Origin: Escherichia coli
GTDB taxonomy: Bacteria > Pseudomonadota > Gammaproteobacteria > Enterobacterales > Enterobacteriaceae
Direction: 5' to 3' (one strand)
Assembly: GCF_050920415.1 (NCBI RefSeq)
Contig: NZ_CP169309.1
Length of the DNA: 64,000 bases
Shown here: positions 49,862-61,209 of the stretch, in pieces
Layout: every line of letters begins with the position of its first letter
Position numbering within the stretch: the stretch's first letter is position 1
Notes under the pieces: generated by a model
Databases searched by the model: none
What the model was told of the DNA's origin: nothing
The model's input: the letters and a program-made list of their open reading frames with translations, nothing else
Translations under genes and position numbers: made by a program

Positions 49862-50042
49862 CTGTCTCTCCTTTTTGTCTGGTATGACATGAAGAAATCC
49901 TTAGCACAAGTTTCTGCTGGCGGTATTAGTTCATAATGTTGAGATGTGGGTTACGCTTTCATCACGTTTTCATTCGAAAATCGCGTACCAGGTAACAATT
50001 CGGGAACATTCCCCCAAAGTTAAATTAATAAGGCACTACACT

Positions 50043-50372
50043 ATGGTTAGCAGGAAACGTAATAGCGTTATTTACCGGTTTGCCAGTTTATTATTGGTGT
50101 TGATGTTAAGTGCCTGTAGCGCACTGCAAGGTACGCCACAGCCAGCACCGCCAGTAACGGACCATCCGCAAGAGATTCGCCGCGACCAGACGCAAGGGTT
50201 ACAGCGAATAGGTAGCGTAAGCACGATGGTTCGGGGTTCTCCGGATGACGCATTAGCAGAAATCAGAGCGAAAGCTGTCGCTGCAAAAGCTGATTATTAC
50301 GTTGTCGTCATGGTGGACGAAACCATCGTGACAGGACAGTGGTATTCACAAGCCATTTTGTACCGTAAATAA
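50043..50372 (+). CDS. bsmA: Biofilm stress and motility protein A (DUF1471 lipoprotein)
   Basis: ORF track starts at 49944; ATG 50043 gives MVSRKRNSVIYRFASLLLVLMLSACSA... (109 aa) with a lipobox LSAC. Confidence 0.9.
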   Translation: MVSRKRNSVIYRFASLLLVLMLSACSALQGTPQPAPPVTDHPQEIRRDQTQGLQRIGSVSTMVRGSPDDALAEIRAKAVAAKADYYVVVMVDETIVTGQWYSQAILYRK

Positions 50373-50520
50373 ATCAGACAACTTACATAGTCAGCTTTAC
50401 ATTGCTTTGCGTCCCTATGCGTTTACCTGTGCACAATAAATTACCAGCTGGAAGCTCGGGCGTTTATTACCGCGATGGAATGCCCTGCAACATGTGGGGA
50501 AACGAAAAATGGAGCTGACG

Positions 50521-50796
50521 ATGAAACAATTACTTGCCTCACCCTCGCTGCAATTAGTGACTTATCCTGCGAGCACCACGGCACAGTCTGCAGAATTCGC
50601 CAGTGCTGACTGCGTAACGGGCCTGAATGAAATAGGTCAGATCTCGGTTAGCAATATTTCAGGGGATCCGCAGGACGTGGAACGTATCGTGGCGTTAAAG
50701 GCCGATGAACAAGGTGCATCATGGTACCGCATTATTACCATGTACGAAGACCAGCAGCCTGATAACTGGCGCGTACAGGCGATCCTGTATGCGTGA
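50521..50796 (+). CDS. yjfN: DUF1471 small periplasmic protein YjfN
   Basis: GGAG Shine-Dalgarno then ATG 50521 gives MKQLLASPSLQLVTYPASTTAQSA... (91 aa); C-terminus resembles yjfY and bsmA. Confidence 0.88.
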   Translation: MKQLLASPSLQLVTYPASTTAQSAEFASADCVTGLNEIGQISVSNISGDPQDVERIVALKADEQGASWYRIITMYEDQQPDNWRVQAILYA

Positions 50797-50820
50797 GTGT
50801 CATCTACAGCAAATGAACAA

Positions 50821-50856
50821 TGCCGGATGCGGCACCTGTGCCTTATCCGGCCAACA
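50821..50856. repeat. REP element
   Basis: TGCCGGATGCGGCACCTGTGCCTTATCCGGCCAAC palindromic unit after yjfN. Confidence 0.8.
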
Positions 50857-50945
50857 GTTCCTGAAATTTCATTGTGTTAGTTGATAACACGTAATGCTGC
50901 TGTTGCCATTATAAGACGCGCTAGCATCACATCTGGCTGACTCGT

Positions 50946-52571
50946 TTATAAACATACTCCCCCCGTCGCCCGCAGCAATAAATCATTCTGGATCTGCTCT
51001 GACAACCGCACGCCGCCGCGCGTATCAAACATCATCTGACACCACGCCTGCGCCATTGGCGGAGAGGCATATTTCAACATTTGCGCGCCGCAACCCAGCA
51101 GGAATAGCTGACGAGTAATCTCTCGCCCCATTTCTTCAGCTGGCTTACGCAGTTGCTGCTGCAAACGACGAACCGCGCGATCAAAATAGCGATCCTGTCC
51201 TTTCACTTCCACAAATGCTTCTGTCAGCAAATCGTATACCCCAGCCTGCTTATTGAGAACGCGCAGCACATCGAGGCACATAATATTGCCAGAACCTTCC
51301 CAGATGCTGTTCACTGGCATTTCCCGATAAAGTCGCGGTAGTTCGCTCTCTTCGCAATAGCCAATACCGCCCAGCACCTCCATCGCTTCAGCCACAAACG
51401 GAATGCCACGTTTGCAGATAACAAATTTCGCCGCAGGCGTAAATAAGCGCGCCCACAGGGCTTCTTTGGCATCGGCACGCCGATCCCACGCTCGCGCAAG
51501 ACGAAACAGCAACGCTGTTTGCCCTTCAAGTTGGAGCGCCATGCGGCTTAAGACATGACGCATCAAAGGCTGTTGGATCAATGGATTACCAAAAACATGG
51601 CGTTGATGGGCATGATAAATCGCCAGCGAAAATGCACGGCGCATCATGGCATGGCTACCCAGGGCGCAATCAAAACGCGTCATCCCACCCATTTTCAGGA
51701 TCAGACGAACTCCTTCCCCTTCCTGCCCCAACAACCAGCCAATGGCATCCTGAAACTCCACTTCGCAGCTGGCGTTAGAGCGATTACCCAGCTTATCTTT
51801 CAGCCGCTCGAGGCGAATCGCGTTGCGTTGCCCGTCAGGCAAAAAGCGCGGCACAAAAAAGCAGGACAAACCGCCCGTAGTCTGCGCCAGCACCAGATGC
51901 GCATCGCTTTGCGGCACCGAGAAAAACCATTTATGCCCCACCAGCCGATAAGAGCCATCGTCCAGACGCTCTGCGCGGGTAGTGTTGCTCATCACATCGG
52001 AACCGCCCTGCTTTTCCGTCATGCCCATGCCAATCAACAAACCGCGTTTTTGCCCACCTGGCAATAAGTGGGAATCGTAGCGATCGCTCAACAGCGGCGT
52101 GGTCCAGTCCTGAAACGGCGCGGGTAACATCTGTAACAGCAATGGCGTGGCGGCAAAGGTCATGGTTATCGGACATAACGACCCTGCCTCAACCTGTGCG
52201 TGCAACATAAAACGCGCCGCGCGCGCCACAAATGCGCCGGAGCGAGCGTCTTCTTCCCAGGCAAGATTGTGCACCCGATTGGTACATAGCGCCTGCATCA
52301 GCAAGTGCCAGGCGGGGTGAAAACGCACATCGTCCAGACGGCGTCCTTGCGCATCGTAGCGCAATAATTCAGGCGGATTCACATTCGCCAGCCGCCCCAG
52401 TTCAAGAGATTCAGCCGTTCCTAACTGCTGACCAATACTGGCGAGAAAATCGCTATCCCAGCCAGCACCTTCACGCGTTACCGCTTCGCAGAGCGCGCCA
52501 TCAGACAGGTATAAGTTGCTGTTATTTAATGGTATAGGTTGATTAAAAACGGTGTGAGTTTGCCAGTGCAC
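50946..52571 (-). CDS. aidB: Acyl-CoA-dehydrogenase-like adaptive-response protein AidB
   Basis: ACAD-fold ORF; start taken at GTG 52569-52571 (..HWQTHTVFNQPIPLNN.., 541 aa) to match the length I remember; an in-frame ATG at 52584-52586 would add 5 residues. Confidence 0.9.
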   Translation of the reverse strand: MHWQTHTVFNQPIPLNNSNLYLSDGALCEAVTREGAGWDSDFLASIGQQLGTAESLELGRLANVNPPELLRYDAQGRRLDDVRFHPAWHLLMQALCTNRVHNLAWEEDARSGAFVARAARFMLHAQVEAGSLCPITMTFAATPLLLQMLPAPFQDWTTPLLSDRYDSHLLPGGQKRGLLIGMGMTEKQGGSDVMSNTTRAERLDDGSYRLVGHKWFFSVPQSDAHLVLAQTTGGLSCFFVPRFLPDGQRNAIRLERLKDKLGNRSNASCEVEFQDAIGWLLGQEGEGVRLILKMGGMTRFDCALGSHAMMRRAFSLAIYHAHQRHVFGNPLIQQPLMRHVLSRMALQLEGQTALLFRLARAWDRRADAKEALWARLFTPAAKFVICKRGIPFVAEAMEVLGGIGYCEESELPRLYREMPVNSIWEGSGNIMCLDVLRVLNKQAGVYDLLTEAFVEVKGQDRYFDRAVRRLQQQLRKPAEEMGREITRQLFLLGCGAQMLKYASPPMAQAWCQMMFDTRGGVRLSEQIQNDLLLRATGGVCL

Positions 52572-52654
52572 TGTGTCTCCCTCCATCAATGGCAGTCACC
52601 CTTAGTATGGTCACTGCCATGGATTCCTGACAGAAAGAGATTGCTAAAACATTC

Positions 52655-53818
52655 TTACCCAGCAATGTAATGCGGAACGAAACGTGAGGTGTCTTTGGTG
52701 ATCAGCGTGTTATCTTCACGGATTCCCATTCCGCACGCTTCATCATCGACAATCCAGCTACCGATGAGTGTGTAGCTATCGCCAAATCGCGGCAGAGGTT
52801 GAAACGCCTGATAGATCATCGGTTCATCGGCGTAATCACCCTCAGCGTGGTCAACGACGTTATTCTGACCGTCGAAAATGGTGACGTTTCCGCCTTCGCG
52901 TGAGTAGATCGGTTTACGCACATAGCTTTCGCCAGCGGCAATCTGCGGTTTTTCGCCATCAAACCAGGATGCAAGTAGGTTAGGATGACCAGGAAAGAAG
53001 CGCCAAAGCAGCGGCATTAACCCTTTGTTGCTCAAGATACTTTTCCATAACGGCTCCACCCATTGCTCGCGGCGCTTGCGCAGCAGAGGACCGTTATCGT
53101 CACGCATCATCCATTCCAGCGGATACAGCTTAAATGCACGCTGGATGACATTATCATCAAGATCGGTCAGTACACCGCCGACGCCCAAACCGAGATCTTC
53201 AATGTAGATAAACCGTGACTCCTGCCCAGCCTGCTGAGCGCAGTCCTGCAAGTACAGCACAGTACTCCTGTCTTCGTCGGTATCCTGACAACAGCAGAAA
53301 TAAAACGGTTCCCGACTGTAAAGCTCGCTAAAACGCGAAATCAGGCGTTCCTGAATGGCATTGTACTGATCGGCATCACGCGGAATAATGCCGCTACGCC
53401 GCGCATCTTCCAGCCACAGCCACTGGAAATAAGCCGATTCATACAACGAGGTTGGCGTATCGGCGTTGTACTCCAGCAGCTTCACCGGCGCATTGCCACA
53501 CCAGGCAAAATCCATCCGACCATACAGCGAAGGATCGCGTGCGCGCCAGCTTTCAGCGATCACATCCCAGTACAGCGGGGGGATCGCCAGTTGCGTCAGG
53601 ATTTCTTCGTCTTGAACCGCACGATCCACCACCTCAAGGCACATCTGATGCAGTTCCGCAGTTGGTTTTTCGATCTGCTCTTCTATCTGACGCAGAGTAA
53701 AGCGGTAAGCCCGACTCTCATCCCAATAGATTTCATTGTCGATGATATGAAAGTCGAAACCGTTGTCGGCGGCGATCTGGTCCAGATCCCGTCGTACAGG
53801 AACGTTGTGTCTCAGCAT
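52655..53818 (-). CDS. yjfC: Glutathionylspermidine-synthase-like ATP-grasp protein YjfC
   Basis: 387 aa ORF MLRHNVPVRRDLDQIAADNGFDFHIIDNEIYWDES...; last gene of the yjfI-yjfC cluster. Confidence 0.92.
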   Translation of the reverse strand: MLRHNVPVRRDLDQIAADNGFDFHIIDNEIYWDESRAYRFTLRQIEEQIEKPTAELHQMCLEVVDRAVQDEEILTQLAIPPLYWDVIAESWRARDPSLYGRMDFAWCGNAPVKLLEYNADTPTSLYESAYFQWLWLEDARRSGIIPRDADQYNAIQERLISRFSELYSREPFYFCCCQDTDEDRSTVLYLQDCAQQAGQESRFIYIEDLGLGVGGVLTDLDDNVIQRAFKLYPLEWMMRDDNGPLLRKRREQWVEPLWKSILSNKGLMPLLWRFFPGHPNLLASWFDGEKPQIAAGESYVRKPIYSREGGNVTIFDGQNNVVDHAEGDYADEPMIYQAFQPLPRFGDSYTLIGSWIVDDEACGMGIREDNTLITKDTSRFVPHYIAG

Positions 53819-53820
53819 GA

Positions 53821-54459
53821 TTAGCCTCCCCAGTGCCCACGGGCGCTGGAAGAACGACCATAGCCGCCGCGAGAAACAGTTGACGCTTTTCTGGTGGTAA
53901 AGCCGCCCGAGGAGTAAGACTCTTTTTTGCCAGAACCGGAGCGCCAGGAGTAATCACCGGAAGTATTGCGCCAGACGGGGCGGGAAGCAAATGAGGATCC
54001 ACCGCTGTTATAAACGAACGGCTCATCGCGATCTTTACGAATAACCCGGCTTAATAAAAATCCAGAAATGACCGGGATCCAACTCTGTTCAACATTGTCG
54101 TAGTAGCAATTTTCGTACTTAGACTGACAATTCTGCTGAGTCATATTCTTCGGAACATCGGCATAAAATGCCGCTTTGGCATTGTTCCAGCCATGAGCAC
54201 AGATATCTGAATTATTACCGTCATCAATACAATCCTGCACTGTCGAGTAAAACGTTCCGTCACCGTCGTTATCGACATCACCACTATCGCCACAACCTTT
54301 CAATACAAAAAAAGCTGCACCGCCCATTAGCGCCAACGTTAAGTATTTTTGTGCGTAGCGATTGCGTCGCGGCTCAAAAGGATTATTAGGTCTTCCAATG
54401 CGACTGATCGCTCCGTGACCAATTTTACTGTTATTTCTTGATTTGCGTTTTCTGGCCAT
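53821..54459 (-). CDS. yjfM: DUF1190 protein YjfM
   Basis: 212 aa ORF with basic N-terminus MARKRKSRNNSK..., one TM segment and a Gly/Ser/Tyr-rich tail. Confidence 0.9.
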   Translation of the reverse strand: MARKRKSRNNSKIGHGAISRIGRPNNPFEPRRNRYAQKYLTLALMGGAAFFVLKGCGDSGDVDNDGDGTFYSTVQDCIDDGNNSDICAHGWNNAKAAFYADVPKNMTQQNCQSKYENCYYDNVEQSWIPVISGFLLSRVIRKDRDEPFVYNSGGSSFASRPVWRNTSGDYSWRSGSGKKESYSSGGFTTRKASTVSRGGYGRSSSARGHWGG

Positions 54460-54468
54460 GATCGTCCA

Positions 54469-54867
54469 TTACCATGTCATACAAGCTGCGTTAAAAATAC
54501 CGCCAGCCAGCGCGGCGGTTCCCATAAACATTCCTGCTGCGGTATTGTGATTAATAATTTTTTCGCTTAATGCTGGCATATAAAGTCTGACGCCAGCAAA
54601 AACGAGTAACTGAATCACCAGTGCGATCCCGCCCCAGGCAAAATAATCCGGAATACTCACCGCATTGATTGCCGCACTAGATAATGGGATCACGTAACCC
54701 AACAATGTACCACTGAACGCCAGTGCCGCCGCGGTATTATTGTTTTTAATTAACTGCCATTCGTTGTGCGGTGTAATTTTGGAGTAGATAAACAGAAAAA
54801 TAATCACCATAGCCACGCCAATAAAAAAATAGGCGCTAAAGGCAAGAAGTGAATCCAGTATATGCAT
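54469..54867 (-). CDS. yjfL: DUF350 inner-membrane protein YjfL
   Basis: 132 aa hydrophobic ORF with about four TM helices. Confidence 0.9.
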   Translation of the reverse strand: MHILDSLLAFSAYFFIGVAMVIIFLFIYSKITPHNEWQLIKNNNTAAALAFSGTLLGYVIPLSSAAINAVSIPDYFAWGGIALVIQLLVFAGVRLYMPALSEKIINHNTAAGMFMGTAALAGGIFNAACMTW

Positions 54868-54884
54868 CGTAAACGTCCTTGTAA

Positions 54885-55544
54885 TTAACCAATAATATGA
54901 AGTGATGTCAGTGGGATATCAACACCCAGTGCGCGCGAAAATAACCACTCCGGCTCGCCGAGATCGTTAAAAGATTCCTCACCATTTAACAGCAAATATT
55001 CACAGGTATCTTCGGTCACCTGCCGTTCATAGCCCATGGTAAAATTATGCACTTCCCATTTGGCGTGGTTTTGATTTTCAACTTTTTCCAGCATATAGAC
55101 GGGTTCGATATTCCCCGGTTCTTCGCTGTTAAAAAATCGCTGCCAGCGTTTTTCCTGCCAGTTTAATGTCATTGCCCCCATCGCTTTGGCGTTGATCGCT
55201 TCGCGCCAGTGGCTCTCTTTGCTGATACCGTAGCTCTCTTCATAGACAAAGAGCTTTATATCATCAATGTCATCAATATCTTCGCCGCCGGTGGTATTGA
55301 TTTGCAGAAATTCATCGCCCGAAGTGTAGTAGCGGAAAATCTGACTACCGCCGCCCAGATCGATGTGGCTGACAGCGGCTACCGTAAATTCTTCACCCGG
55401 CAGCGCAATCAGCAATTCATCTTCCAGCAAACGAAACGCTAACGTGTCGAGCGTAAAGCCGCTATTGAGATGAAGTCCCAGCGGGCCACGTGCGGTTACA
55501 GGTTTATCATCCTTACCAAACAGACGCTTGAAAAAACTTGTCAT
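54885..55544 (-). CDS. yjfK: DUF2491 protein YjfK
   Basis: 219 aa ORF MTSFFKRLFGKDDKPVTARGPLGLHLNSG...; start overlaps the stop of the upstream channel-like gene (ATGA). Confidence 0.9.
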   Translation of the reverse strand: MTSFFKRLFGKDDKPVTARGPLGLHLNSGFTLDTLAFRLLEDELLIALPGEEFTVAAVSHIDLGGGSQIFRYYTSGDEFLQINTTGGEDIDDIDDIKLFVYEESYGISKESHWREAINAKAMGAMTLNWQEKRWQRFFNSEEPGNIEPVYMLEKVENQNHAKWEVHNFTMGYERQVTEDTCEYLLLNGEESFNDLGEPEWLFSRALGVDIPLTSLHIIG

Positions 55545-56611
55545 ATGCTTCCCTCAATGTCCTGCCATACCACTTCTTCAGCCAAAATACGGTTATTGCC
55601 AATAAGATGCAGCCACATACCGCCTTTAACTTCCGTTGCAATGACTGGATTCAGTTCCATTCCCCTACCATTTTTACAACTGCTTATTCCCAGGACGGTG
55701 GCATCATGATGAAGTTTCATATAATGCATCAATGCGCCATAACGCATCGAGGTAACCCGTTCAGGAATCGGTAAAACAAACCCCGTATCCCCCAGCATTG
55801 GATTCATAATCGATGCCACTGATTGAGATGAACCGGGATCTTGTATTGAACGGGAAAGTTGTTCTGCTGAAATATTTCGCACTATTTCAATACGTTGACA
55901 ATGAACCTCTAATAAACGAGCGTAGCGTTCATCTTCCAGATAAGCGACGATATGGCATCTTTCAGGAATAAAATCCGCCAGGGATAGTGCGGTCGTGAAC
56001 GTCTGCTCATCTGTTTGCGAAAAGATGATGACACTTTGGCAATTTGCCAGTCCCATGCGGGTATGTTCATGCGGATCATTAAAATTACTAATACGAATGA
56101 AATCGACCCAATTATTTCCAGGCATCGGATGTTGAATATCATCCCGCTCACACAAAAGTACCCGGCCAAATGCTCTTCGGGAATCAAACAACAATAATGA
56201 AATCATCTTTTCAGTCTGATGCCCGCGCCATCCAATGACCAGCATATGGTTGCGCAAATTGCTGTAGTCGCCCATTCCCGTCATTCCTTTCGCCAATATG
56301 TCTTGCACTAATGCAATGACTTTTCCCATTAAAGCGCCAAATAAACCAACACTCACAGGAATCTGCCAGAGCGCTGTGAACAGACGTCCCCCAACCGTTT
56401 GGGGTGTGATATCACCAAACCCCAGCGTTGATCCCACAACCGAGCAGTAATAAATAAAATTACTCAGTTGACCTACCAACGCCTCTTCATGCAACGCAGT
56501 TAACACCAGATAACAAAACAGATACTGTCCTGTAAATAATCCAGTCAATGCCGGCCAGGTAAGCCTGGAAAGGTGACGTCGGCAGGTTTTAATGATCCAG
56601 GAGAAGAACAT
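55541..56611 (-). CDS. Two-TM potassium-channel-like protein with C-terminal RCK/TrkA-N-like domain
   Basis: 356 aa ORF: TM1 (LTGLFTGQYLFCYLVLTAL), pore helix with selectivity-filter-like TLGFGD, TM2 (LFTALWQIPVSVGLFGALMG), then an RCK-type segment starting HMLVIGWRGHQTEK. Start ATG shares its A with the yjfJ TAA stop; stop overlaps the yjfK ATG. Confidence 0.8.
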   Translation of the reverse strand: MFFSWIIKTCRRHLSRLTWPALTGLFTGQYLFCYLVLTALHEEALVGQLSNFIYYCSVVGSTLGFGDITPQTVGGRLFTALWQIPVSVGLFGALMGKVIALVQDILAKGMTGMGDYSNLRNHMLVIGWRGHQTEKMISLLLFDSRRAFGRVLLCERDDIQHPMPGNNWVDFIRISNFNDPHEHTRMGLANCQSVIIFSQTDEQTFTTALSLADFIPERCHIVAYLEDERYARLLEVHCQRIEIVRNISAEQLSRSIQDPGSSQSVASIMNPMLGDTGFVLPIPERVTSMRYGALMHYMKLHHDATVLGISSCKNGRGMELNPVIATEVKGGMWLHLIGNNRILAEEVVWQDIEGSI

Positions 56612-57309
56612 TACTCGCCCTGTTGGCGTTGCAGTCTTGCTAATACATCCTGGGCGCTACTTTTGTTGCTACCGCCAATTCCGGCTTCCGCCAGTTTTTC
56701 ATCAAGATCGCGACCATCTGCCACTTTTTCCAGCTGTGCGGCAGCATCCAGGCGAGCTTGACGTTCGGCCTGACGCGTTTGCAGACGCTTTAAGGATTCT
56801 GCCGCTGTCGAAACGCTGGAAGATGCGCCAACAGTAGAGGTCGTTACGGCCTGTTGTGCACGCTGCATGGCTTCAGTAGCTTTAACGACTTCCATTTGTT
56901 GCTCAAATTGAGCGATACGCTGTGCTGTCGCTGTAACCGCTTTTTCCACACCATCGCGAGAGACCTCCAGATTCGACAACACTTGCTCTTCAGCGGTAAT
57001 GAGATTCTCAAGACGGGCGATTTCTTCAGCAACTTCGTTAATCAACGACGGATTAACATTCTTGCTTAACGCTTCCAGCGCGCGAGCTTCCAGACTGGCT
57101 TTACGCTCACGTAAATCTTTCAGTTTATCGTTGCTCAATTTCACTCTTGCCAGTAGATCGACACGTGATTTACCGGCCTTATCCAGTTCTGCTTTGGCAT
57201 CGCGTATATGCTGTTCAAGCATTCTAACGCCCTGTGCTTCTTCAATGGATTCTTCCGCTTGCGAGATCACCGATTTACCCAGCGTAAATAAAGTTTTTAA
57301 AATTCCCAT
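56611..57309 (-). CDS. yjfJ: PspA/IM30 (ESCRT-III-like) family protein YjfJ
   Basis: 232 aa predicted coiled-coil ORF MGILKTLFTLGKSVISQAEESIEEAQGVRMLEQHIRDAKAELDKA... Confidence 0.92.
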   Translation of the reverse strand: MGILKTLFTLGKSVISQAEESIEEAQGVRMLEQHIRDAKAELDKAGKSRVDLLARVKLSNDKLKDLRERKASLEARALEALSKNVNPSLINEVAEEIARLENLITAEEQVLSNLEVSRDGVEKAVTATAQRIAQFEQQMEVVKATEAMQRAQQAVTTSTVGASSSVSTAAESLKRLQTRQAERQARLDAAAQLEKVADGRDLDEKLAEAGIGGSNKSSAQDVLARLQRQQGE

Positions 57310-57327
57310 AAATACCTGTCCTTGTAA

Positions 57328-57729
57328 TTAGTGTGAATATTCTTCTGTAATTTCAGCAAGATCCAAAGCGTTATCTACCAGCGTGGTTATTTCCAGCAGG
57401 ATATCTTCAAGAGAAGATTTAAGCGATAACGCCCCGAAAACAATGTAATACTCTTCCTCTTGCACGCTGGAGATCCCTACCGATGACAACGGCATCATCT
57501 TCTGATTTCTTAATAAGAAGGTATTAAATTCATCTGGATTGCTGATACTACTTACCGGACAAATAAAGGTTTCGATAATCATTTGGCGGGAAGTAAAAAG
57601 AATATTGATTTGCAAATCGCCATAATCATTCATTTTAATAATTAATGCGTTTTCATTATTTGTTATATCAATATTTTGTTCAGGTACAGTTTGCAGCGCC
57701 GTCGCCAGCGCCAACGGATTCCATGTCAT
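57328..57729 (-). CDS. yjfI: DUF2170 protein YjfI
   Basis: 133 aa ORF MTWNPLALATALQTVPEQNIDITNNENALIIKMNDYG...; first gene of the cluster. Confidence 0.9.
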   Translation of the reverse strand: MTWNPLALATALQTVPEQNIDITNNENALIIKMNDYGDLQINILFTSRQMIIETFICPVSSISNPDEFNTFLLRNQKMMPLSSVGISSVQEEEYYIVFGALSLKSSLEDILLEITTLVDNALDLAEITEEYSH

Positions 57730-57807
57730 ATATTATTCCATATAAATTAAGTTTAAATATTAATAAAATGAATATTTGTAGTACGTAATTATCTTACCAG
57801 CTATAGA

Positions 57808-57840
57808 CAAAAAAAAACCATCCAAATATGGATGGTTTTT
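57808..57840. terminator. Bidirectional hairpin terminator after rlmB
   Basis: AACCATCCA-AATA-TGGATGGTT perfect stem flanked by A9 upstream and T5 downstream; a T-run follows on the minus strand after the rlmB stop. Confidence 0.85.
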
Positions 57841-57855
57841 CATAATTCAGAGAAA

Positions 57856-58587
57856 TTAGCTACGCTGGCGTACCGCTTCAAATAAGCAAATGCCTGTCGC
57901 CACAGAAACGTTCAGCGAAGAAACACTTCCTGCCATTGGGATGCTGATCAACTCATCGCAATGTTCACGGGTCAGGCGACGCATGCCTTCACCTTCTGCG
58001 CCCATCACCAGTGCCAGCCGTCCGGTCATTTTGCTCTGATAGAGCGTATGATCCGCCTCTCCTGCCGTACCGACGATCCAAATATTCTCTTCCTGCAACA
58101 TACGCATGGTGCGCGCCAGGTTAGTCACCCGAATCAGCGGAACGCTTTCTGCCGCGCCGCAGGCCACTTTTTTCGCCGTGGCGTTGAGCTGTGCGGAGCG
58201 ATCTTTCGGCACAATCACCGCATGAACGCCAGCGGCGTCCGCGCTGCGCAGGCACGCGCCGAGGTTGTGCGGATCGGTCACACCGTCGAGGATCAGCAGG
58301 AACGGTTGATCGAGCGAAGCGATCAGATCCGGCAGATCGTTTTCCTGATACTGACGTCCTGGCTTCACACGGGCGATAATGCCCTGATGCACGGCACCGT
58401 CGCTTTTCTCGTCGAGATATTGGCGGTTTGCCAGCTGGATAACCACGCCCTGGGACTCAAGGGCGTGAATCAGCGGCAACAGACGTTTATCTTCACGGCC
58501 TTTTAAAATAAAGACTTCCTGAAAACGTTCAGGGGCGCGCTCCAGCAGGGCCTGCACTGCGTGGATGCCGTAAATCATTTCACTCAT
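57856..58587 (-). CDS. rlmB: 23S rRNA (guanosine-2'-O)-methyltransferase (SpoU/TrmH family)
   Basis: 243 aa [36 protein letters not shown]...; downstream of rnr. Confidence 0.95.
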
Positions 58588-58609
58588 TAATGTACTCGTT
58601 GTTTACGTT

Positions 58610-58712
58610 TTGCCTGATGCGCTACGCTTATCAGGCCTACATGATCCCTGCAATGTATTGAATTTGCGTGATTATGTAGGCCGGATAAGGCGTTCACGCC
58701 GCATCCGGCATG
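58610..58712. repeat. REP/BIME cluster
   Basis: GCCTGATGCGCTACGCTTATCAGGCCTAC ... GTAGGCCGGATAAGGCGTTCACGCCGCATCCGGCA units between rnr and rlmB. Confidence 0.85.
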
Positions 58713-58767
58713 AACAAAGCGCATTTTGTCAGCAATCTGACCCTCTTCTGTTTGAAGGGGGTAATGA

Positions 58768-61209
58768 TCACTCTGCCACTTTTTTCTTCGCCGCACGCTT
58801 CGCTTTAGTTGCAGCGGCTATTTTCTGCGTTTTCGCCGATGGCTTTTTCGCTTTTCTCGCGTCTTTCTTCGCCGCTTTCGGCTTCGGTTTTTTCTCGCCA
58901 CGGAAGGCGCTGTCTGGCTCAAAGTTTACCTTTTTACCGACCTGGCGACGCTTGCCACCTTTTTTACCTGCATCGCCTTTTTTCGCTTTCTCGCGCGCGG
59001 TTTTACCGACGTTGCGCGGTGCGCGTTCGCTGGAGATCAGGCTAAAGTCGATTTTGCGCTCGTCCATATTAACCGCTTCGACGCGCACTTCCACGCGATC
59101 GCCCAGGCGATAAGTCTGGCCGCTGGATTCACCCATCAGGCGTTGTCCTACCTGGTCAAAGCGATAGTAGTCATTGTCCAGAGAAGAGACATGGACCAGA
59201 CCATCGATGAACAAGTCATCCAGGCGAACAAAGAAGCCAAAACCAGTGACGCTGGAAATCACGCCTTTAAAGACGTTACCTACCTGGTCGAGCATGAAGT
59301 CACACTTCAGCCAGTCAGCCACATCGCGCGTTGCTTCGTCGGCACGACGTTCCGCCATCGAACAGTGCTGACCCAGTTGCAGCATTTCTTCCATCGAATA
59401 ATGGTAGCCGCCGGTTTCAGTGGTGTTGCCCTGATGCCCCTGCTCTTTCGCCAGCAGATACTTAATGGCGCGGTGTAGCGTCAGATCAGGATAACGACGA
59501 ATCGGCGAAGTAAAGTGCGCATAGGACTGCAATGCCAGACCGAAGTGACCGCGGTTTTCCGGATCGTAAATCGCTTGTTTCATCGAGCGCAACAGCATGG
59601 TTTGCAGCATTTCTGCGTCAGGACGGTCAGCAACCGATTCCAGCAGTTCCGCGTAGTCACGCGGTTCCGGCTTGTTACCGCCAGGCAATTCCAGCCCCAG
59701 TTCCGCCAGCACTGAACGGAAAGAGGTTATCGCTTCAGTGCTCGGCTTGTCGTGAATACGGAACAGTGCCGGTTCTTTGGCCTTCTCAACGAAACGCGCC
59801 GCCGAGATATTCGCCAGAATCATGCACTCTTCAATTAACTTGTGTGCGTCGTTACGCTGGGTCTGTTCGATACGCTCAATACGGCGTTCAGCGTTGAAAA
59901 TGAACTTCGCTTCTTCGCTCTCAAACGAGATCCCGCCGCGTTCTTCACGGGCTTTATCCAGCACTTTATAGAGGTTATGCAGCTCTTCGAGGTGCTTAAC
60001 CAGCGGGGAGTACTGCTCGCGCAGATCCTGATCGCCCTGCAGAATATGCCAGACTTTGGTGTAGGTCAGACGCGCGTGAGAGCTCATCACCGCTTCATAG
60101 AATTTGTAGCCCGTCAGGCGACCTTTCGACGAAATGGTCATCTCACACACCATACACAGGCGGTCTACCTGCGGGTTGAGCGAGCACAGGCCGTTAGAGA
60201 GCACTTCCGGCAGCATCGGGATAACCTGCGAAGGGAAGTACACCGACGTGCCACGGTTACGCGCTTCCCTGTCCAGCGGCGTTGGCGGACGCACATAGTA
60301 GCTGACGTCGGCAATCGCGACCCATAAACGCCAGCCGCCGCCGCGTTTTTTCTCGCAGTAAACTGCATCGTCAAAGTCACGGGCGTCTTCGCCATCAATG
60401 GTGACCAGCGGTAAATCGCGCAGATCGACACGGCCAGCTTTCGCCTCTTCCGGCACTTCTTCTTTCAGCCCGGCAACCTGTTGCTCAACAGCCTGCGGCC
60501 AGATGTACGGAATTTCATGGGTACGCAGGGCGATATCAACCGCCATGCCGGTGCCCATATTATCGCCCAGCACTTCGACGATTTTACCCACTGCTTTGGT
60601 ACGGCGAGTCGGGCGTTGGGTCAGTTCAACCACCACCACAAAGCCCATCCGCGCGCCCATGATCTGATCGGGCGGGATTAAGATATCGAAGCTCAAACGA
60701 CTGTCGTCAGGAACCACAAAGCCGACACCCGCTTCGGTAAAGTAGCGACCAACAATCTGGCTGGTTTTTGGCACCAGTACGCGGACAATACGCGCTTCAC
60801 GGCGGCCTTTACGGTCAGCGCCCAGCGGCTGCGCCAGCACCTGATCGCCATGAATGCATGTTTTCATCTGCTCGCTGGAGAGATACAAATCATCTTTACG
60901 TCCTTCAACCCGCAGAAAGCCGTAGCCATCACGGTGGCCAATAACGGTACCTTTCACCAGGTCGAGGCGTTCCGGCAGCGCATAGCACTGACGGCGAGTA
61001 AAGACCAGTTGACCATCGCGCTCCATCGCGCGCAGGCGGCGACGCAGGCCTTCAAGCTGCTCTTCGCCTTCAATGTGCAGTTCTACCGCCAGCTCATCAC
61101 GGCTGGCCGGTTTTTCACGTTTGGTTAAATGTTCGAGGATAAATTCCCGACTAGGGATGGGATTCGCGTATTTTTCAGCTTCGCGTTCCTGGAAAGGATC
61201 TTGTGACAT
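58768..61209 (-). CDS. rnr: Ribonuclease R
   Basis: ORF track starts at 61251; ATG 61207-61209 gives [20 protein letters not shown]... (813 aa) with RNB and S1 domains and a Lys-rich C-terminal tail. Confidence 0.95.

Follow-up and report, generated by a model that had tools for sequence, protein, structure and literature searches.

Introduction

Ravi et al. 2024 (mSystems 9:e00847-23; PMC11237479) described a "third group" of CesT/Tir-PspA operons with the same seven components, including a K+ channel, as the operon that we analyze here: yjfI to yjfC, at positions 52655-57729 of a 64,000-nucleotide (nt) stretch of Escherichia coli DNA (RefSeq assembly GCF_050920415.1, contig NZ_CP169309.1). 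We refer to the whole stretch as the window. The third group holds an ATP-grasp ligase related to glutathionylspermidine synthetase (PMC11237479). Ravi et al. also read DUF1190, another of the families, as a metal-chelating lipoprotein (PMC11237479) and credited the link to polyamine-metabolism genes to Li et al. 2019 (PMC11237479).

In Pseudomonas aeruginosa, the six genes bacA-F are co-transcribed, according to reverse transcription PCR (RT-PCR), and the other five proteins are up 6-13-fold in a bacA mutant, so BacA is a negative regulator of them. The bac operon affects biofilm formation, rhamnolipid secretion, and virulence. In E. coli K-12, yjfIJKL form one iModulon, which is strongly induced in heat-adapted lines (Rychel et al. 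2025, PMC12492005). YjfC and its paralog YgiC are reported to be peptide-spermidine ligases in vitro, without a known physiological substrate (Pederick et al. 2023, as cited in later papers). Crystal structures of both ligases are in the Protein Data Bank (7UK6 and 7UK7 for YjfC; 7UK8 and 7UKA for YgiC), as is a structure of a DUF2170 protein (8Q8O). Sui et al. 2012 are cited as having found that YgiC does not make glutathionylspermidine, and the RefSeq name of YgiC is already peptide-spermidine ligase. According to a citation of Dhamdhere & Zgurskaya 2010, the growth defect of a tolC mutant is worsened by the joint loss of ygiBC and yjfMC. Finally, ygiB is under Cpx control in Citrobacter rodentium.

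This type of cluster is already known, and the operon in the window matches the third group of Ravi et al. in its composition. What we add is its distribution within Escherichia, evidence for a deletion origin of its channel-less form, and an analysis of the DUF1190 tail. Our preferred reading, which we hold with moderate confidence, is that the ancestral seven-gene operon is most likely a single inner-membrane stress or homeostasis system made of nested modules. Specific to the window are two points: a minority lineage of Escherichia keeps the ancestral form with the channel, and K-12-type strains carry a probable deletion scar.

Layout of the operon

All seven open reading frames (ORFs) in 52655-57729 are intact, and all are encoded on the minus strand. 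In the direction of transcription, yjfI (57729-57328, 133 amino acids) encodes a DUF2170 protein (PF09938) with a CesT/Tir-like chaperone fold, and yjfJ (57309-56611, 232 amino acids) encodes a homolog of PspA/IM30, or bacterial ESCRT-III (PF04012). These are followed by a K+ channel gene of the MthK type (56611-55541, 356 amino acids; Ion_trans_2), whose product comprises a pore and a cytoplasmic RCK domain, and by yjfK (55544-54885, 219 amino acids), which encodes a soluble, almost all-beta DUF2491 protein (PF10679). The small integral membrane protein encoded by yjfL (54867-54469, 132 amino acids) belongs to DUF350 (PF03994), which Ravi et al. 2024 describe as having four transmembrane segments (PMC11237479). 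The last two genes are yjfM (54459-53821, 212 amino acids; DUF1190, PF06693) and yjfC (53818-52655, 387 amino acids), which encodes a GSP_synth ATP-grasp ligase (PF03738) without an amidase domain. The upstream neighbor of the operon is rlmB, and the downstream neighbor is aidB, 83 nt away on the same strand.

These families were assigned by Pfam, as precomputed hits on a contig that is identical to the window. NCBIfam models matched four of the seven proteins, with all of the matches below threshold and in line with Pfam. The chromosome of E. coli MFDS1022581 contains this region at 100% identity, and the RefSeq annotation of a chromosome with 100% identity (NZ_CP169399.1) has the same seven genes.

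From yjfI to yjfC, the spacings are 18, -1, -4, 17, 9, and 2 nt. The start of the channel gene and the stop codon of yjfJ have 1 nt in common, and the channel's stop overlaps the start of yjfK by 4 nt. An earlier annotation of this DNA, made from the letters and a list of ORFs (the sequence-only reading), described a co-directional cluster with gaps of 18 nt or less or overlaps, and the seven ORFs and their measured spacings bear this out. It left the strand unstated, and the gene order that it listed runs from right to left in window coordinates. All seven of the gene identities that it proposed are correct, as Pfam confirms every family. The DUF2170 gene is followed, 18 nt later, by the PspA/IM30 gene, as in the third group of Ravi et al.

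Ancestry of the channel gene

The seven-gene order is identical in Salmonella enterica and Atlantibacter hermannii, where the operon likewise occupies the slot between rlmB and aidB, and it is also identical in Hahella (Oceanospirillales) and Corallincola (Alteromonadales), where it lies at a different place in the genome. As part of this, the DUF2491, DUF350, and DUF1190 genes of the window belong to one operon, and their order agrees with that in all four of these genera. Orthologs of the channel, at 58-87% identity, are found in Citrobacter, Salmonella, Enterobacter, Atlantibacter, Buttiauxella, and Scandinavium. The overlap between the channel gene and the DUF2491 gene is kept across three orders, including in Hahella and Corallincola. 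Judging from these comparisons, the arrangement of the genes exceeds chance. Because the same order and slot recur in Salmonella and Atlantibacter and the same order recurs in Hahella and Corallincola, the channel gene is ancestral in the Enterobacteriaceae, with K-12-type E. coli as the derived, channel-less form. The sequence-only reading took the channel to be an addition to the cluster, which was wrong: the channel is part of the published operon and, by synteny, is ancestral.

Just 18 of 5,426 complete E. coli genomes have the channel gene, with at least 99.3% identity and on the chromosome in every case. When we used the whole region as the query, 5,425 of the 5,426 genomes matched, most of them at 81% coverage and around 94% identity; coverage is 81% in most genomes because the channel gene is missing there. 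Within Escherichia, the channel is absent from four lineages (E. coli sensu stricto, E. whittamii, Escherichia sp. MOD1-EC7003, and E. fergusonii) and present in a second divergent lineage, represented by SCPM-O-B-8794.

Where the channel gene is absent, yjfJ and yjfK are separated by a spacer. A 50-nt form of this spacer is common to E. coli sensu stricto, E. whittamii, and Escherichia sp. MOD1-EC7003. The E. fergusonii spacer shares its hairpin and its ribosome-binding region with this form and has about 115 extra nt between them; these extra nucleotides have no significant similarity to the channel gene. We compared the 50-nt spacer with the first 33 and the last 17 nt of the channel ORF (an end-anchored comparison) and found 25 matches in 50 positions, as compared to 15.7 +/- 2.8 for shuffled sequences (p ~0.002). 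When the K-12 spacer was aligned locally to the channel gene without such anchors, it scored no better than shuffles. These results give moderate support to an in-situ internal deletion as the origin of the channel-less form, with the spacer as its probable scar. (The support is moderate because only the end-anchored test is significant.) The hairpin in the spacer has a predicted stability of -18.5 kcal/mol (z = -3.6, unmatched by any shuffle) and is the top terminator-like match in the K-12-type locus. With the loss of the channel, a potential attenuator has therefore taken the place of the overlapping codons.

Selection on the channel gene is purifying. Its dN/dS ratio (nonsynonymous to synonymous substitution rates, computed by the Nei-Gojobori method with our own code) is 0.08 between the two channel-bearing lineages of Escherichia, and the ratios for its neighbors are 0.01-0.11 within Escherichia (for example, 0.02-0.08 for yjfJ and 0.01-0.03 for yjfC). 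The locus is also a recombination mosaic. Escherichia has two deeply divergent classes of yjfI alleles: the window's yjfI is 97% identical at the nucleotide level to that of E. coli sensu stricto, and it is 77% identical, with dS above 1.6, to the alleles of SCPM-O-B-8794 and E. fergusonii (L005:1958-2350 and L018:3723-4118). In those same comparisons, rlmB, which lies beside yjfI, is 95-98% identical.

The small number of channel-bearing E. coli genomes (18 of 5,426) and the mosaicism of the locus could be explained if the channel were an accessory gene that was recently inserted into the E. coli yjf operon by horizontal transfer. We consider this explanation to be essentially refuted. In Salmonella, Atlantibacter, Hahella, and Corallincola, the channel is found at this position too, and the spacer of channel-less strains resembles a deletion scar. 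The flanking yjfJ and yjfK are Escherichia-like (YjfJ has 98.3% amino-acid identity to the K-12-type YjfJ). We found no mobile-element features at the channel gene, whose junctions are overlapping codons, and the GC content of the channel region is unremarkable. Furthermore, the adjoining housekeeping genes and a distant locus are as divergent from typical E. coli as the operon is. Relative to a K-12-type strain, aidB, rlmB, and rnr have 95-96% nucleotide identity, which is the same range as for the genes of the operon. Some 30 kb from the operon, another locus of the window matches the same few genomes at 97-99% identity and the other 5,395 at about 93%. As the whole strain is divergent, the channel locus is not an island, and the channel is therefore characteristic of a divergent lineage of Escherichia whose members are classified as E. 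coli. Our guess is that this lineage is a cryptic clade.

A scan of species-representative genomes for YjfK peptide patterns returned five loci, as the patterns were too specific, and we took wider contexts from the encoding contigs. All five loci are from Escherichia except for one 237-base contig under a Bacillus name. A protein that joins a fragment of the channel to DUF2491 (P0033) was considered as an intermediate of the deletion and rejected, as it is a frameshifted Salmonella gene call. In some E. coli chromosomes (H19 and H22), IS1 is inserted within the yjf cluster, and in E. coli SCPM-O-B-7615, 15% of the query was matched, which suggests that most of the cluster has been deleted. 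At least some backgrounds can do without the operon. We also noticed a six-gene metagenomic locus with the yjf composition minus the channel, in which the DUF2170 protein has 205 amino acids. It adjoins genes for SIR2/TIR and nSTAND1 NTPase proteins, a pair that is typical of anti-phage defense, and this may be a coincidence.

The tail of YjfM and the YjfC ligase

From its N-terminus, YjfM has a basic region and a hydrophobic signal or anchor with the sequence LKGC; next come an acidic domain rich in Cys and a conserved hydrophobic segment, and the protein ends in a basic tail that is rich in Gly, Ser, and Arg. The end of the tail, S-T-V-S-R-G-G-Y-G-R-S-S-S-A-R-G-H-W-G-G-COOH (53824-53883, minus strand), is conserved in Escherichia, Salmonella, and Atlantibacter and in the paralog YgiB. 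An exhaustive search with YjfM gave 155 representatives, each standing for a cluster at 50% identity or above. To analyze the tail, we used 116 DUF1190 proteins of at least 150 amino acids with no obvious frameshift or fusion. Of these, 94 end in Gly-Gly. If the last 12-30 residues are shuffled, 6-15 such proteins are expected, and the maximum in 2,000 trials was 27. A motif of the SRGGFG type is present in 110 of the 116 proteins, at a median distance of 16 residues from the C-terminus. YgiB has both the RGGFG motif and the terminal Gly-Gly.

DUF1190 genes are also found consistently next to genes for the ligase. The DUF1190 gene was immediately upstream of a GSP_synth gene in all five loci that we seeded with distant DUF1190 proteins and in all three loci that we seeded with distant ligases, as well as in yjfMC and ygiBC. 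In the operons of six and seven genes, and also in a module of three genes, the gene immediately before DUF1190 is a DUF350 gene of the yjfL family. Bare DUF1190-GSP_synth pairs are found on two phage-like contigs and, in an alphaproteobacterium, beside mreBCD. The phage-like pairs (L014:7001-8802 and L016:7001-8759) are on contigs of 170 kb and 21 kb; both contigs have dozens of small unannotated ORFs along with NAMPT and Band_7, and L016 also has CTP_transf_like/NUDIX. Large phages may carry the DUF1190-ligase module as an auxiliary function. In the alphaproteobacterium, Terasakiella brassicae (L020:221-8161), the pair comes after mreB-mreC-mreD-pbp2-rodA, and between them is a greA-like gene in the opposite orientation.

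Several E. coli assemblies contain proteins of 548-601 amino acids that have both DUF1190 and GSP_synth domains (P0303-P0307, P0349, and P0354; around 53818-53900 of the window), and one cluster of such read-through proteins has 130 member sequences. We rejected P0303 and P0304 as genuine fusions: a frameshift in the tail of yjfM reads through into yjfC. The read-through alleles would destroy the conserved tail, so they might be natural knock-outs or sequencing errors.

YjfC itself matches the structure of "acid-amine ligase YjfC" (7UK6) over its full length (E = 7e-274). We used AlphaFold2 to model a chimera of YjfC, a 20-residue Gly-Ser linker, and the last 45 residues of YjfM, with an alignment of 10 paired sequences and 70 unpaired homologs of the ligase. 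In the model, residues 429-442 (TRKASTVSRGGYGR) are ordered, with a mean predicted local distance difference test (pLDDT) score of 79 for residues 431-440 and with TVSR as a beta-strand. Disorder (pLDDT of 28-38) extends over the linker and most of the tail. Based on this model, we propose that the conserved motif in the tail is a docking element for the YjfC ligase.

Glutathionylspermidine synthetase (GspS) joins spermidine to the carboxylate of the C-terminal Gly of glutathione, and two other ATP-grasp enzymes, RimK (which acts on ribosomal protein S6) and tubulin-tyrosine ligase, modify the C-termini of proteins. By analogy with these three enzymes, the terminal Gly of YjfM is a plausible acceptor. 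A more specific proposal, which is speculative and which we rate as rather improbable, is that YjfC and YgiC recognize the RGGFG motif in the tail of the neighboring DUF1190 protein and attach spermidine to its C-terminal Gly-Gly. If this is true, then spermidine on the C-terminus of DUF1190 would be a bacterial post-translational modification that was previously undescribed; a polyamine-tagged membrane protein would work with a PspA-type scaffold and a K+ channel in the repair or homeostasis of the inner membrane; and large phages would bring the same modification into their hosts with a two-gene pair. The adjacency of DUF1190 and the ligase, the Gly-Gly tail, and the predicted docking of the motif are new here, as far as could be judged from the papers that cite Pederick et al. 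2023.

For the cytoplasmic YjfC to act on the tail of YjfM, the tail would have to be in the cytoplasm. DUF1190 proteins have a conserved hydrophobic segment, W-[FW]-M-P-A-M-A-G-F-M-L-G-R, just before the tail. Across the family, the median net charge is -6 before this segment and +7 in the tail, and this split would fit a cytoplasmic tail. On the Wimley-White scale, the segment favors the membrane (median of -2.4 kcal/mol, and negative in 86% of members). Most members of DUF1190 start with MKRS and have a canonical lipobox, L-[AT]-[GA]-C, at around residue 20. The enterobacterial YjfM proteins have an unusually long basic N-terminal extension, of about 38 residues ahead of the hydrophobic signal or anchor, and an atypical lipobox, LKGC, with Lys at -2. 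YjfM may be a signal-anchored membrane protein rather than a processed lipoprotein.

Predicted features of the channel, YjfI, and YjfK

The channel aligns with MthK over nearly its full length (residues 6-300 with MthK 4-285, E = 1.4e-7), and this points to a short pore domain with an RCK gating domain after it. The Pfam matches are at 1.7e-10 for Ion_trans_2 and, weakly, at 0.039 for TrkA_N. The predicted selectivity filter is T62-L-G-F-G-D67 (56411-56428, minus strand), whose T, G, G, and D are invariant in eight orthologs. The filter is TVGYGD in the distant orthologs, and the pattern T-x-G-[FY]-G-D is invariant over three orders. The RCK-type gating domain, at about residues 120-300 (55712-56254, minus strand), was placed from the alignments with MthK and with the orthologs. 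Its beta-A strand reads VIGWRG and does not have the GxGxxG motif; IGW and PGSS are invariant across the three orders. E210 and E212 of MthK align with EDERY in the channel, D184 of MthK aligns with a Phe, and the acidic Ca2+ site is not conserved in the channels of Hahella or Corallincola. Given that the triad is incomplete and is lost in distant orthologs, we rejected MthK-like Ca2+ gating as a trait of the family. From these sequence features, we predict that the channel conducts K+ and is gated by a ligand.

YjfI matches the structure of a "DUF2170 family protein" (8Q8O, E = 2e-17) and matches the NCBIfam model for BacA below its cut-off. The assignment of the CesT/Tir fold to the YjfI family is from Ravi et al. 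2024 (PMC11237479). YjfK is predicted to have an almost all-beta fold (pLDDT of 90 and predicted template modeling score of 0.85). The conserved translational coupling between their genes suggests that YjfK and the channel may act together.

Upstream region and transcription

The intrinsic terminator of rlmB (57812-57841, minus strand), which was identified by a terminator scan and from the sequence, has a 13-base-pair stem and a run of nine Ts at 57817-57809 (the T9 run). It marks the upstream edge of the yjf transcription unit. Between the terminator and yjfI is an AT-rich leader (57730-57811, minus strand), which is the putative promoter region; the 500 nt from 57500 to 57999 have 36% GC. 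We found no sigma-54 site upstream of yjfI (TGGCAC-N5-TTGCW-like with up to two mismatches), and a sigma-70 scan of the same region found nothing above background and no strong consensus. No Rfam family matched in 50000-60000.

The induction of yjfIJKL in heat-adapted lines of K-12 with a mutL background is apparently due to the deletion of 1 nt at a distance of 80 bp upstream of yjfI (PMC12492005). Position -80 from the ATG of yjfI is the last T of the T9 run, which is the U-tract of the rlmB terminator. Because the reported distance of 80 bp coincides with the last T, we place the deletion in this run: the activating deletion of Rychel et al. may be a slip in the homopolymer.

In Hahella and Corallincola, a small DUF6471 gene (88-99 amino acids; L019:2647-2946 and L021:2560-2826) lies just upstream of the DUF2170 gene and is transcribed divergently from it. 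The Enterobacteriaceae lack this gene, which may regulate the operon.

Competing explanations

In the single-system reading, YjfI would be a CesT-like chaperone or regulator that, going by homology and by the data on BacA from P. aeruginosa, probably controls YjfJ. YjfJ, as a protein of the PspA/ESCRT-III type, would polymerize on the stressed inner membrane and stabilize it. The RCK-gated K+ channel, which is translationally coupled to yjfJ and yjfK, would link the status of the membrane to K+ flux and the membrane potential. Cytoplasmic YjfC would bind to the conserved tail motif of YjfM, a membrane protein, and it may ligate spermidine to the C-terminal Gly of YjfM, as its homolog GspS does on glutathione. 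We infer every functional step in this account, above all that YjfM is a substrate. The sequence-only reading had also suggested a membrane-associated stress or remodeling module, and this agrees with Ravi et al. 2024 and with the heat-adaptation data of Rychel et al. 2025. Its statement that the biochemical function is not established is right about the complete system and not about YjfC and YgiC, whose ligase activity and structures are published. Similarly, two of the checks that it proposed are covered by the literature at least in part: for co-expression, by the yjfIJKL iModulon in K-12 and the RT-PCR of the bac operon in P. aeruginosa, and, for ligase activity, by the peptide-spermidine ligase activity of YjfC that is credited to Pederick et al. 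2023.

Several points weigh against a single system with YjfM as the substrate of YjfC. Existing experiments do not connect the PspA part, the channel, and the ligase part in one function; yjfM and yjfC are outside of the yjfIJKL iModulon in the data of PMC12492005; a stable, terminator-like hairpin separates yjfJ from yjfK in K-12-type strains; and the DUF1190-ligase pair is also found alone in other contexts. The docking model had 10 paired sequences, no control, and no coordinates, and it does not place the terminal Gly-Gly (the last ten residues have pLDDT of 22-35). Most DUF1190 proteins have a classical lipobox, which would put the tail outside of the cytoplasm, and YgiB has been described as a predicted outer-membrane lipoprotein. 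Finally, the hydrophobic segment is weak on the Kyte-Doolittle scale (19-residue mean of 0.76).

Some of these points would be expected if the cluster consists of two or three independent units that simply lie side by side, namely YjfI-YjfJ (with or without the channel) and a polyamine-ligase unit of YjfK, YjfL, YjfM, and YjfC, with no shared mechanism. In favor of this are the hairpin and the limits of the iModulon. The DUF1190-ligase pair also occurs independently, next to tolC, next to mreBCD in Terasakiella, and on the phage-like contigs; DUF350-DUF1190-ligase is also found alone; and the literature mentions a "yjfIJ operon." We think that this is unlikely, because the full order is kept in at least three orders of Gammaproteobacteria with tight or overlapping junctions, and because, in the window, stop and start codons overlap from yjfJ to the channel gene and again from the channel gene to yjfK. 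Also, the iModulon crosses the hairpin: yjfK and yjfL co-vary with yjfI and yjfJ. Another possibility concerns only the ligase. YjfC might make a free peptidyl-polyamine, as GspS does, and the tail of YjfM might merely tether or regulate the ligase or might work in the periplasm. This would fit with the published in-vitro activity, which is reported to be on peptides; with the docking of the internal motif and not the C-terminus; with the export that is predicted from the lipobox; and with the view of Ravi et al. that DUF1190 is a metal-chelating lipoprotein (PMC11237479). However, a periplasmic tail would not explain the predicted contact with a cytoplasmic enzyme, the charge split (-6/+7) fits a cytoplasmic tail, and the near-invariant Gly-Gly, which suits the carboxylate chemistry of this enzyme family, would be left without an explanation. 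We view a free product as possible though clearly less likely than not. For the operon as a whole, we continue to prefer a single inner-membrane system of nested modules.

The operon is among the better-conserved blocks of unknown function in Gammaproteobacteria, and in E. coli it is tied to heat adaptation. The bac operon of P. aeruginosa, which is linked to biofilm formation and virulence, is headed by the same two families as the yjf operon, and yjfMC is tied to envelope stress in tolC mutants. As K-12 has a reduced version, work on K-12 alone omits the ion-channel part that is kept by channel-bearing E. coli and by Salmonella. The tail of DUF1190 gives a concrete and testable candidate partner for YjfC and YgiC and, if the proposal is true, a new modification of proteins.

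Comparison with known systems

The classical Psp system (pspF-pspABCDE) shares with the yjf operon an effector of the PspA/IM30 family and a presumed role in protecting the inner membrane. The partners are different: classical Psp has PspF, PspB, PspC, and a sigma-54 promoter, while the yjf operon has a CesT-like protein, a channel, and a polyamine ligase. We found no pspF-like gene near the yjf operon and neither PspB nor PspC among the seven genes or in the flanks. The bacABCDEF operon of P. aeruginosa is closer, as it opens with a DUF2170 protein of known crystal structure (BacA) and a PspA homolog (BacB), like yjfIJ. Beyond these two genes, we infer orthology only; the paper does not state the families of BacC-F. 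The bac promoter is reported to depend on sigma-54, in contrast to the region upstream of yjfI in the window, which lacks such a site.

The channel resembles MthK, the Ca2+-gated channel of Methanothermobacter, in having a short pore domain, an RCK domain, and a TxGxGD filter. Two of the three residues of the MthK Ca2+ site are matched in the channels from Enterobacteriaceae, and the site is not conserved in the distant orthologs. YjfC shares the synthetase fold of GspS and aligns with GspS 253-445 and with trypanothione synthetase at about 501-626. GspS has 619 amino acids and includes an amidase domain, whereas YjfC has 387 amino acids and nothing that aligns to GspS 1-250. GspS makes glutathionylspermidine, and YjfC is reported not to.

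The tolC-ygiB-ygiC locus has a paralogous pair of DUF1190 and peptide-spermidine ligase genes, as in yjfMC, and, as cited in later work, each pair is genetically redundant with the other when tolC is mutated. The tolC locus does not have the genes for PspA, the chaperone, the channel, DUF2491, or DUF350. The closest relative is yjfI-J-K-L-M-C of K-12, which, as in the window, sits in the slot between rlmB and aidB, and whose six common proteins are 95-99% identical. K-12 has no channel and has the 50-nt hairpin spacer; the window instead has the overlapping codons of yjfJ, the channel gene, and yjfK.

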